Shown piece by piece: positions 29,563 through 32,079 of a stretch of DNA of 41,208 nucleotides (position 1 is the stretch's first letter; each line of letters starts with the position of its first letter). Origin of the DNA: a virus; the UHGV virus genome UHGV-0041851, one strand, 5' to 3'. The notes under the pieces were generated by a model. The model worked only from the letters and a program-made list of their open reading frames with translations, was not told the DNA's origin and ran no database searches. Made by a program: the position numbers and the translations under genes.

Positions 29563-30675
29563 TTAGAATTGGTAGGTCATACCAACAGCAACGATGTTGT
29601 CGGTTGCAACGCCAGATTTTTTGGTAAAATCACTTTCATCGATCAGGTTGATCTTATAGTCAACGAAAGTGGACATATTCTTGTTAAAGTAATAAGTCGC
29701 GCCCACGTCGATGTATTCAACCAGATCCTGGTTACCGAACGCACCAATATTTTCACCGCGAGAGTGTAGGTAAGCGATGGACGGACGCAGGCCGAAATCA
29801 AACTGGTATTGAGCAACGGCTTCAAAGTTTTTCGCCTTGTTCGCGATATGGTCATCACCGAAGACTGTCATATTCTGAGTTTCAGAATAAGTTGTAGCCA
29901 GGTAAATGTTGTTTGCATCATATTTCAGGCCCGTAGCCCATACTTCAGCAGTTTTACCAGAGGCATTCAGAGGGCTGGCTTTAGCATAGGATACCTGTCC
30001 ATCAGTACGGTCAGATTTTGCATAGGTTGCAGCAACGCCAAATCCTTCATAATCGTAAGTAGCTGACAGACCAAAGCCATCACCATTAGATTCAACTTCG
30101 TCGCGGCCTTTCCAGTTGTTCACTTTTGCAGCACTATCATTTTTACCTTGATACTGCAAAGCAAAGTTCAGACCATCAACCAAGCCGAAGAAATTATTGT
30201 TACGATAGGTCGCGACGCCAGTAGCACGCTGGGTCATAAATACATCAGTCTGAGTCCAGGTATCTCCACCAAACTCCGGCAGCACGTCAGTCCAAGCGCC
30301 AACATCATAAGCTACACCGTAGTTGCGACCATAGTCGAGCGAACCATAATCGCCAAAGCGAAGCCCTGCAAACGCAAGACGAGTTTTATCTTTATCAGAA
30401 CCTTCAGTTTCAGAACGGTTACCTTTAAATTCGTACTCCCACTGACCAAAACCGGTTAACTGGTCATTAATCTGAGTTTCACCTTTGAAGCCCATACGAG
30501 CATAAGTTTTATCCCCGTCATCACTAGCCGAAGAAGAGAAGTAATGCTCTGCATTAACTTTGCCGTACAGATCCAGTTTGTTACCGTCTTTGTTATAGAT
30601 TTCTGCCGCTTGTGCAGACATTGCCATCAGAACAGATGCTGCAACCGTAGAAAGTGCCACTGTAATTTTTTTCAT
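29563..30675 (-). CDS. General outer-membrane porin, NmpC/Lc/PhoE-like (OmpC/OmpF family)
   Basis: 370 aa; signal peptide [39 protein letters not shown]; porin hallmarks and C-terminal ...[12 protein letters not shown]; closest by memory to prophage-encoded NmpC/Lc. Confidence 0.9.
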
Positions 30676-30961
30676 TTTTTTTCCTTTAGATTGAACTTTT
30701 CAACAGAAAAGAAGTCACTTAGGGAAGATGTTTATCTTTTTTTGATTTACATTTCAAGTTTTTTAAATAAATATCGAGATATTTTCGTGATCAGGATCAC
30801 AAAAAACACCATTGCAAACCAATTAATTATTAGGATGGTATTAATAATATAGAGTAAAAAATAACACTAAGACCAAATCGCAACCAGAAACAACAGCGCA
30901 GTATAAAACACGGGTAGTGCATCCAATTAGTAGAACATGTGTTTTTCGATAAACGCTCCGA

Positions 30962-31314
30962 TCACTTTTTCGTGGATCTCAACTGAGCGTGAGAAGCAGA
31001 TTGTTTTTTACGAGCCAACTGCTTAATGCGGGTGCGTAGCGTCAGATTATTACGCTCAATGCGTTGGGTGAATATTTTGCCGGTCAGATGCTTATTCTTC
31101 GCCCCCCCCCGGCCATAGCTGCCCCAGTCATCGCTGGTGAGCATGCCGATATTGAAGGGTATAAGCAGTGCCAGTAGCTCCCGGCACGTTTGATCGGTTC
31201 GGGGACCAAAAGTGTAGGCCAGTACACCGCCTGTTTTGGTGTTGTACGCGTACCAGAGCCAGTGTTGCCGGCAACGTAGCTCCATTGCTCATCAAGCTCG
31301 CAGATAAGCGCCAC
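30962..31314 (-). pseudogene. insB: insB-like transposase frame, split across two reading frames
   Basis: N-terminal InsB-like segment (..ICELDEQWSYV..) and C-terminal segment (..WLWYAYNTKTGGVLAYTFGPRTD..GKIFTQRIERNNLTLRTRIK..) lie in different frames; a C8/G8 homopolymer at 31098-31105 lies within the frame. Confidence 0.55.
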
Positions 31315-31340
31315 ATCAGCGTGGGCAACAGGCGAAGAAG

Positions 31341-31610
31341 TTATTCGCGTTGGCGCGAGTTTTTTAAAGTCCGGATGACGGTGTTAATACCAATTTTCAG
31401 TGTTTTGGCGGTATCGCGAACCCCGGCACCATTAAAGGCCATTTCAGTGATCAGCTCTTTCATACCCGGCTTACGTGCTTGATAAGTATAAGTGAGCTGA
31501 AACACACGGTGGCAGTCACGGCAGCGAAATCTGTCACGGCCTTTAGGGTTTTGACCATGGCGGTAAACCCGAGCTAACTGACAACGGGGACAATGAATAT
31601 TAACGCTGGT
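31341..31610 (-). pseudogene. insA: insA-like frame lacking a canonical start codon
   Basis: Translation ..IHCPRCQ..RFRCRDCHRVF..GVRDTAKTLKIGINTVIRTLKNSRQRE resembles the IS1 InsA zinc-finger/HTH protein, but no in-frame ATG/GTG/TTG precedes the zinc finger. Confidence 0.4.
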
Positions 31611-31770
31611 TATGAGATAACCTCAAAAGCCCGTATTATACATCAGATTCAACTAATTAGAGGCATCACCAGAAATGGCTTGCTTCCATAGTCTAAAGCA
31701 AGCCACAACACATTTACCTTAAGTACACAATTAACATACCAGAACAGGTTATTTTAACACTATCAGGGAG

Positions 31771-32079
31771 TTAATATACGATCTGGTCTACATGATTACC
31801 AAAATCATCGTCGTCGTCCTCATCGCCACCATCTACAGATGGCCAATCAACAAACCAGCCAGCGTAAAGATGCAGCGTTCGGAGAACATCACTTACGGGA
31901 GCATCAAGGGTGTTAACGAATCCCATATAGCTATTGGGATTTGCCCCAGCTATGGCTTCAGTGATCATGTCCTCGGTAATGTCACCGGAGATAATGCTTA
32001 AACGCCCGGAAACTTCTTCATTATCATCAAATTCGATAATGGCATCTCCGCCTAATGGCGCTGCGATTTTAATCTGCAT
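31771..32079 (-). CDS. Small highly acidic hypothetical protein at the distal end of the dar operon
   Basis: 102 aa; start overlaps the ddrB stop; C-terminus GGDEDDDDDFGNHVD. Confidence 0.5.
   Translation of the reverse strand: MQIKIAAPLGGDAIIEFDDNEEVSGRLSIISGDITEDMITEAIAGANPNSYMGFVNTLDAPVSDVLRTLHLYAGWFVDWPSVDGGDEDDDDDFGNHVDQIVY

Follow-up and report, generated by a model that had tools for sequence, protein, structure and literature searches.

The IS1-family element between the porin gene and hxr raised the question of how it came to stand without a target-site duplication (TSD), and whether it is still able to make its transposase. The window, i.e., the whole stretch of DNA that was analysed, is 41,208 nt of the UHGV virus genome UHGV-0041851.

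The host of the window was assigned as a P1/P7-like phage-plasmid by nucleotide comparison. The 14 kb around the site showed 97.7-98.1% identity to phage P7, phage JL22 and hundreds of IncY plasmids, and the ORF sizes fit Res/Mod, DarB (2,255 aa), DdrB (995 aa) and DarA. The genes are ordered as ssb, a P7-type porin gene (nmpC/ompC, 29563-30675, minus strand), the IS, hxr/odaA (31771-32079, minus strand) and ddrB. On the P1-type backbone, the interval between ssb and hxr/ddrB in which the element lies is RD-2. RD-2 was described by Venturini et al. (PMC6906374) as a hot spot that is different in every P1-like plasmid examined. P1 has isaA-IS1-isaB in the equivalent ssb-hxr interval. P7 and most relatives, e.g., pLAO48, have no IS here and show a 739-bp spacer instead, of which the right-hand 125 bp is an isaB 3' remnant common to P1 and P7.

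The porin gene of the window is of the P7 nmpC type, encodes 370 aa and is a cargo gene of RD-2. For the most part it is 98-100% identical to P7, but identity drops to 92-93% in patches (29600-29699 and 29900-30099). The gene has the look of a mosaic allele, and the divergent patches possibly lie in regions encoding surface loops.

The sequence-only reading had placed an IS1-family element here, and its limits proved exact:

30913..31670, minus strand: whole defective ISEc30-type element, 758 bp, 96.1% full-length identity to intact 766-bp copies

The element is a degenerate copy of a 766-bp IS1-family element of the ISEc30 type. The intact copies used for comparison, i.e., those of pO177B2 (NZ_CP023675 9654-10419) and Rac-SA53 (KU052037 14749-15514), are annotated as IS1 family transposase. 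They are like the window copy in inverted repeats, in the insA, A6C and insB' layout and in domain content. The window copy differs from them by an ATA in place of the insA start, a 10-bp deletion, a 2-bp insertion, 18 substitutions in 756 aligned bases (2.4%) and the lack of an 8-bp duplication.

Family membership was examined by domain search. The window's own frames gave Zn_ribbon_InsA, HTH_Tnp_IS1 and DDE_Tnp_IS1 in Pfam (PF03811, PF12759 and PF03400). The InsAB' of intact relatives is 231 aa, and the reconstructed transposase of one of them scored 261 bits with the NCBIfam model NF033558 (IS1 family transposase), against a cut-off of 100. The IS1-type layout, i.e., InsA with zinc ribbon and HTH followed by InsB' with an IS1-type DDE domain, is present in the element. 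The length of about 0.75-0.8 kb and the imperfect terminal inverted repeats starting with GGT, by which the IS1 family is recognized, were found as well. ISEc30 is placed in the IS1 family in PMC12077207. The name is used here after that paper and after the GenBank annotation of the phage Rac-SA53 copy (KU052037). The Rac-SA53 copy is labelled IsEc30, and its annotation gives an 8-bp duplication and a programmed frameshift of -1.

The classic IS1 of P1 (AF234172 22626-23393) is like the window element in family, orientation, RD-2 interval (ssb-hxr) and A6C motif, but its InsAB' is only 44.5% identical to that of the ISEc30 type. Direct DNA homology to classic IS1 was also looked for, and none was found beyond the 12-bp slippery region, so the kinship is visible only in protein. 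Matches to the ISEc30-type element were present in 1,272 of 5,426 complete E. coli genomes, in some of them at 40 or more places. The intact form is common and active in E. coli.

The ends of the element and its frameshift motif are preserved:

31648..31670, minus strand: left inverted repeat (IRL), same as in the intact copies; IS positions 1-57 have no differences from the reference
30913..30935, minus strand: right inverted repeat (IRR), same as in the intact copies; 18 of the first 23 positions match IRL
31359..31367, minus strand: A6C programmed -1 frameshift motif TTAAAAAAC, intact, same as in classic IS1 and the intact relative

In its own orientation, the element has GGTGATGCCTCTAATTAGT at its start and the reverse complement of GGTAGTGCATCCAATTAGT at its end, and both repeats begin with GGT. 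Neither the repeats nor the A6C slippery site is altered in the window copy. At its IS1-equivalent position, the A6C motif is the predicted site of the -1 frameshift between insA and insB'.

The transposase genes between these ends carry three lesions, and one further stretch of insB' is listed with them:

31341..31613, minus strand: insA-like frame, 90 sense codons and a stop, with ATA as first codon; Zn_ribbon_InsA (6e-18) and HTH_Tnp_IS1 (2.9e-29) in Pfam
31611..31613, minus strand: lost insA start codon, ATG to ATA, from alignment to the intact copies
31271..31272, minus strand: junction of a 10-bp deletion in insB' (GCAGTAAAGC missing), which parts the first catalytic D from the second D and the E
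31004..31009, minus strand: A4 to A6 (+2) insertion (T6 on the plus strand), second frameshift of insB'
30927..31003, minus strand: C-terminal segment of insB', KTICFSRSVEIHEKVIGAFIEKHMFY followed by a stop, in the third frame, from frame translation

As had been proposed, the frameshifts and the ends were located by alignment, with sister copies and the pair of intact 766-bp elements as references; the frame is broken at 31271/31272 and 31004-31009, and the ends are intact. The lack of a canonical start in the InsA-like frame was confirmed, since ATGGCC of the intact copies reads ATAACC in the window copy, where the second codon is also changed, from GCC to ACC. The ATA is present in all aligned same-site copies and in the small-plasmid copies described below. 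A Shine-Dalgarno GAGG is kept 7 nt 5' of the ATA. The next canonical in-frame start of insA is a GTG 36 codons downstream, from which the zinc ribbon would be dropped.

The InsB-like frame had been described as split between two reading frames. The split is real, but the frames are three, because the transposase is divided by both the 10-bp deletion and the +2 insertion. The deletion removes GSKA and part of the following codon inside the DDE domain, and it leaves the first D (ELDEQW) in another frame than the second D (SDDW) and the E (QRIERNN). The +AA insertion shifts the last 26 codons to the third frame. A continuous InsAB' frame with the full DDE triad is absent, as the start is lost, the triad is split and the C-terminus stands in the third frame. 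Judged by these frames, the window copy cannot make InsAB' transposase and is dead as an autonomous element. The ratio of nonsynonymous to synonymous substitutions is 6:3 in insA and 6:4 in insB', and both genes look unconstrained by this count. The lesions were seen again in independent public assemblies and in metagenome and viral contigs, and are therefore not sequencing artefacts of the window.

A domesticated InsA repressor was considered as a candidate and rejected, since the 6:3 of insA resembles the 6:4 of the dead insB' and gives no sign of constraint. As a separate observation, the +AA insertion makes a second A6C run at 31003-31012 (minus strand: CGTAAAAAACAA), in which the bases of the IS1 slippery motif stand in another codon phase. 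The C-terminal frame would be restored by a -1 slip at this run, and the upstream 10-bp deletion would still not be bypassed.

A C8 homopolymer had been reported in the insB region at 31098-31105. A homopolymer is present, but it is a C9 with other limits:

31102..31110, minus strand: G9 run (C9 on the plus strand), in frame, of variable length among same-site copies

The run originated by three substitutions, GGGAGGTGC to GGGGGGGGG, which left the length unchanged, and therefore it causes no frameshift in the window copy. Its length at the same site is 9 in the window, 10 in the metagenome contig L016 and 11 in CP057733 (L007), and the run-creating substitutions are common to all three. This variation comes either from true slippage in a run free of constraint or from errors of assembly. 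The suspected length instability of the homopolymer is reasonable in view of the variation among same-site copies.

About 9-10 further records have junctions identical to those of the window, i.e., four CP057733-type records, NZ_CP034659, NZ_AP018397, two metagenome contigs, and two viral contigs (L017 and L018) placed by blastn and the 10-bp-deletion junction only. The flanking genes are also identical in NZ_CP034659, NZ_AP018397, CP057733 and the contigs L015-L018. All of the same-site copies that were aligned (6-7) have the ATA start and the +AA insertion, and the flanks of the sister copies are identical to those of the window. The copies fall into two groups. Group A, i.e., the window, CP034659, AP018397 and L015, is 758 bp long with the 10-bp deletion and ATAACC. 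Group B, i.e., CP057733 and L016, is 769-770 bp long with ATAGCC and a longer G run, and differs from the window in having no 10-bp deletion. These undeleted sister copies bear other frame-breaking indels. The window copy is a mosaic, in which a group A 5' part (the deletion haplotype) is joined to a group B-like 3' part (the G-run haplotype).

As judged from these alignments, the element is shown to predate the diversification of its carriers. The earlier view of an old, decayed copy agrees with the three inactivating lesions, with the 18/756 substitutions and with their occurrence in common among carriers with identical junctions. In NZ_CP034659 and NZ_AP018397, RefSeq already has IS1-family transposase features at the place of the same-site copies, and an explicit frameshift flag stands on the related 756-bp copies.

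Compared as 8-mers, the flanks of the element (TAAAACACG and AGAAATGGC) agree at 4 of 8 positions, and as 9-mers they agree at 3 of 9. A TSD with shifted ends was also tried and rejected; when each end was moved by as many as 4 bases in either direction, 8- and 9-mers reached no more than 5/9. The claim that the 9-bp flanks are not a direct repeat was correct. Intact insA and insAB' frames together with an 8-9-bp duplication, i.e., the outcome contrary to the sequence-only reading, were not seen, as the lesions are present and the TSD is not.

Simple insertions of the IS1 family do keep their duplications, as three kinds of control showed. Intact ISEc30 copies have the 8-bp TSDs TGTGGCTA and AAACATTT. 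P1's own IS1 (L006 2127-2894, AF234172), which differs from the window element in being a simple insertion between isaA and isaB and not beside the porin gene, has the 9-bp duplication TGCCCTCTG; P7 (L005, about 2640-2670) shows the uninterrupted CCCTCTGAATATGCAATGA, which is the empty site of this insertion. In AP018397, a classic IS1 lies 100 bp from the dead ISEc30 with a clean 9-bp TSD, TGGTTTACA. The absence of a TSD is to be read as a property of the insertion event and not of IS1-family membership. The lack of a TSD here, against the 8-bp TSDs of intact ISEc30, is in line with the earlier proposal that the flanks were reshaped by IS-mediated deletion or recombination.

The two flanks were then compared with P1 and P7:

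30834..30912, plus strand: IRR-side flank, diverged and collinear homolog of the P7 porin-upstream region, 64-79% to P7, only seen with the IS
31671..31706, minus strand: IRL-side flank, restart of the P1/P7 backbone, marked by homology start and fold

P1/P7 homology restarts at 31672-31674, right at the IRL end, and the porin-upstream region is collinear with P7 as far as the IRR end. Approximately 400 bp of P7 (L005, roughly 2387-2789), a length measured against P7 and not against the true ancestor, has no counterpart in the window; it is also found in pLAO48 and includes the isaB 3' remnant. The proposal that ancestral sequence was replaced here is supported by this missing stretch, by the restart of homology at the IRL end and by the position in RD-2.

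Identity to P7 decreases toward the IS, with 94%, 79% and 64% in the last three 100-bp windows on the left, and on the right it rises through 86%, 91% and 98% moving away. Because identity drops from both sides, the IS stands at the centre of an RD-2 allele of a separate kind and not in otherwise P7-identical DNA. The IS-adjacent flanks are far more diverged than the backbone, and for this reason the ancestor was not simply P7-like.

A hairpin was predicted at 31675-31706, downstream of hxr, with a 12-bp stem and the core GGCTTGCTT...AAGCAAGCC (-18.2 kcal/mol, z -2.45). It is kept in P1 and P7, and the IS junction is 4 nt from its base. The hairpin is a probable terminator of the backbone, and the rearrangement probably ended just short of it. 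Consensus promoters and terminators were also scanned for in 30600-31900, but their numbers were near those in shuffled sequence and therefore uninformative.

The surroundings of the element are a hot spot for IS elements in the relatives, both over the approximately 300 bp that lie upstream of the porin gene (window 30780-30830 and equivalents) and in the porin gene itself. A classic IS1 is found in AP018397 (L003 3859-4625) and an IS3-family element in CP034659 (L002), and in CP060066 (L012) remnants of IS5 and IS3 come after an IS26-type element. The metagenome contig OGJH01000143 (L016) has an insert of approximately 1.3 kb within the porin gene, at window-equivalent 30545-30553.

An IS-free form of the locus was searched for in several ways. 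When 30676-30912 was compared by megablast with complete E. coli genomes, no IS-free carrier of the IRR-side flank appeared; the only matches were carriers that hold the IS or are truncated by other IS elements. An exact 22-mer of this flank had no match in genome contigs and two in metagenome contigs, both with the IS. Dispersal of the deleted variant was looked for with the 25-mer of the deletion junction, which had no match in genome contigs and two in viral contigs, both at the same P1-type site.

The identical 10-bp deletion was found outside RD-2, in 756-bp ISEc30 copies without a TSD. Some of them lie on small ColE1-like plasmids of 3.7-5.1 kb (L008-L010 and L014), with the flanks ...ATCTCACTG, IS, AGATTCTGA.... 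Another is chromosomal (NZ_CP145714; L013 3001-3756), between eutA and murI/gadC-like genes, with the flanks ...GCTGGATG, IS, CAGTATGT.... The marker patterns of the small-plasmid and chromosomal deleted copies are mosaic, and the chromosomal copy keeps the ATG (ATGACC) in a reference-like 5' part. Repeated origin of the deletion by slipped mispairing was considered and set aside. The deletion has no flanking microhomology, so that its recurrence is unlikely. Exchange between IS copies would be the simplest account of one deletion in unrelated contexts, and the mosaic copies mean that recombination within the element does happen. Simple vertical decay does not fit this distribution, as the deletion occurs in unrelated contexts and yet is absent from two same-site copies; gene conversion or recombination between copies is therefore required.

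Taken as a whole, the element is very probably a non-autonomous relic of ISEc30 in RD-2, left by a single insertion whose junction was remade and which then decayed. ISEc30 would have inserted once, in the ancestor of a minor P1/P7-like sublineage. At least one junction would then have been remade, with loss of the adjacent isaB remnant and of one of the two duplicated repeats. The transposase genes would have decayed afterwards. In this sublineage, the element is fixed in RD-2, the variable region between ssb and hxr. This order of events accords with the lack of a TSD, with the junctions common to all known carriers, and with the approximately 400 bp of P7-type relatives that is missing exactly at the IS. 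Neither a pre-deletion intermediate nor an IS-free version of the RD-2 allele was found in complete E. coli genomes or in genome and metagenome contigs.

For the junction, somewhat under half of the weight within this explanation goes to the preferred route, an adjacent deletion of the IS1 type. Such deletions, which IS1 mediates through intramolecular replicative transposition, were described for it in the gal region. They are like the window in that a single IS is kept, no duplication is present, a contiguous stretch beside one end is missing and the flanks are collinear with an IS-free relative. The likeness is in the resulting sequence and not in an observed process, and the flanks of the window element are strongly diverged near the IS. 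Adjacent deletion is favoured because both flanks are collinear with P7 and no foreign DNA adjoins the element.

The same collinearity speaks against the main competing account, in which the TSD was lost by homologous recombination between two ISEc30 copies and not by transposase-mediated deletion. Such recombination could have been a deletion between nearby copies in the same orientation, or the resolution of a cointegrate that brought in the IS together with a diverged porin-upstream allele. The IRR-side flank, at 64-79% to P7 against 98-100% for the backbone, suits such an import, and it was never found without the IS, which fits its having arrived with it. Exchange of this kind does occur, as the copies are mosaics, and the site is busy in relatives, where classic IS1, IS3, IS26 and the 1.3-kb insert lie within 300 bp. 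A TSD is also missing from two further copies with the 10-bp deletion, which lie in other contexts. However, patchy divergence is typical of porin alleles, so that the diverged upstream region need not have come with the IS, and a two-copy or cointegrate intermediate was not found. Recombination between IS copies is a serious possibility, at roughly one chance in three, and explains the locus nearly as well as adjacent deletion does. The alignments do not tell deletion and IS-IS recombination apart, and the direction given for the rearrangement is presumptive.

Two further accounts were weighed. A normal TSD might have been erased later by point mutations in an old insertion. The 2.4% divergence from active copies and the AT-rich intergenic flanks lend it some plausibility, but 8-9 bp would be expected to have changed less than once at approximately 2-3% divergence, and the flanks match at only 4/8 or 3/9. 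Moreover, in P1 and P7 the IRL-side flank is preceded by the isaB tail, which is lacking on the other side of the element, and no partly matching repeats were seen, the aligned sister copies having the same flanks as the window. By the flank comparison with P1 and P7, erosion of the TSD appears effectively refuted and is hardly credible. It is likewise extremely unlikely that the element still functions, with a weak ATA start and with frameshifts that are bypassed by ribosomal or transcriptional slippage or are homopolymer sequencing errors. The GAGG is correctly spaced from the ATA, a -1 slip at the A6C run made by +AA restores the C-terminal frame, and the G run differs in length between assemblies. 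Nevertheless, the 10-bp deletion is not in a homopolymer, has no slippery context and recurs in independent assemblies. The undeleted sister copies, moreover, have frame-breaking indels of their own, and the substitution patterns of insA (6:3) and insB' (6:4) are unconstrained.

The finding is an ordinary one. The element (ISEc30, IS1 family), the hot spot (RD-2) and the type of replicon are all known, and defective IS copies without duplications are commonplace. Its value is mainly for annotation, as a pseudogenised ISEc30 in a P1-like phage-plasmid that should be annotated as a defective mobile element. For genome curation, the G/C homopolymer is to be treated as length-unstable or error-prone.

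Mildly unusual is only the recurrence of the 10-bp-deleted variant, always without a duplication and on mosaic backgrounds, at the P1-type RD-2 site, on small ColE1-like plasmids and at a chromosomal rearrangement junction, which hints at recombination and not transposition as its means of spread. A more far-reaching reading is improbable, namely that the 10-bp-deleted ISEc30 may spread by IS-to-IS gene conversion or recombination and not by transposition, with the related idea that the open insA frame serves as a low-level repressor. If it were true, dead IS copies in phage-plasmids would be active hubs of exchange with host replicons, and a low level of InsA repressor would shield the phage-plasmid from further ISEc30 activity.

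For the phage-plasmid itself, the RD-2 hot spot of this sublineage is shown to have been remodelled around an IS. At present, the element would act only as a passive homology patch, and in principle it could also be acted on in trans by the transposase of intact ISEc30 copies, which are common in E. coli. As a patch of 758 bp, it could serve for recombination with E. coli genomes carrying active ISEc30, of which there are many.
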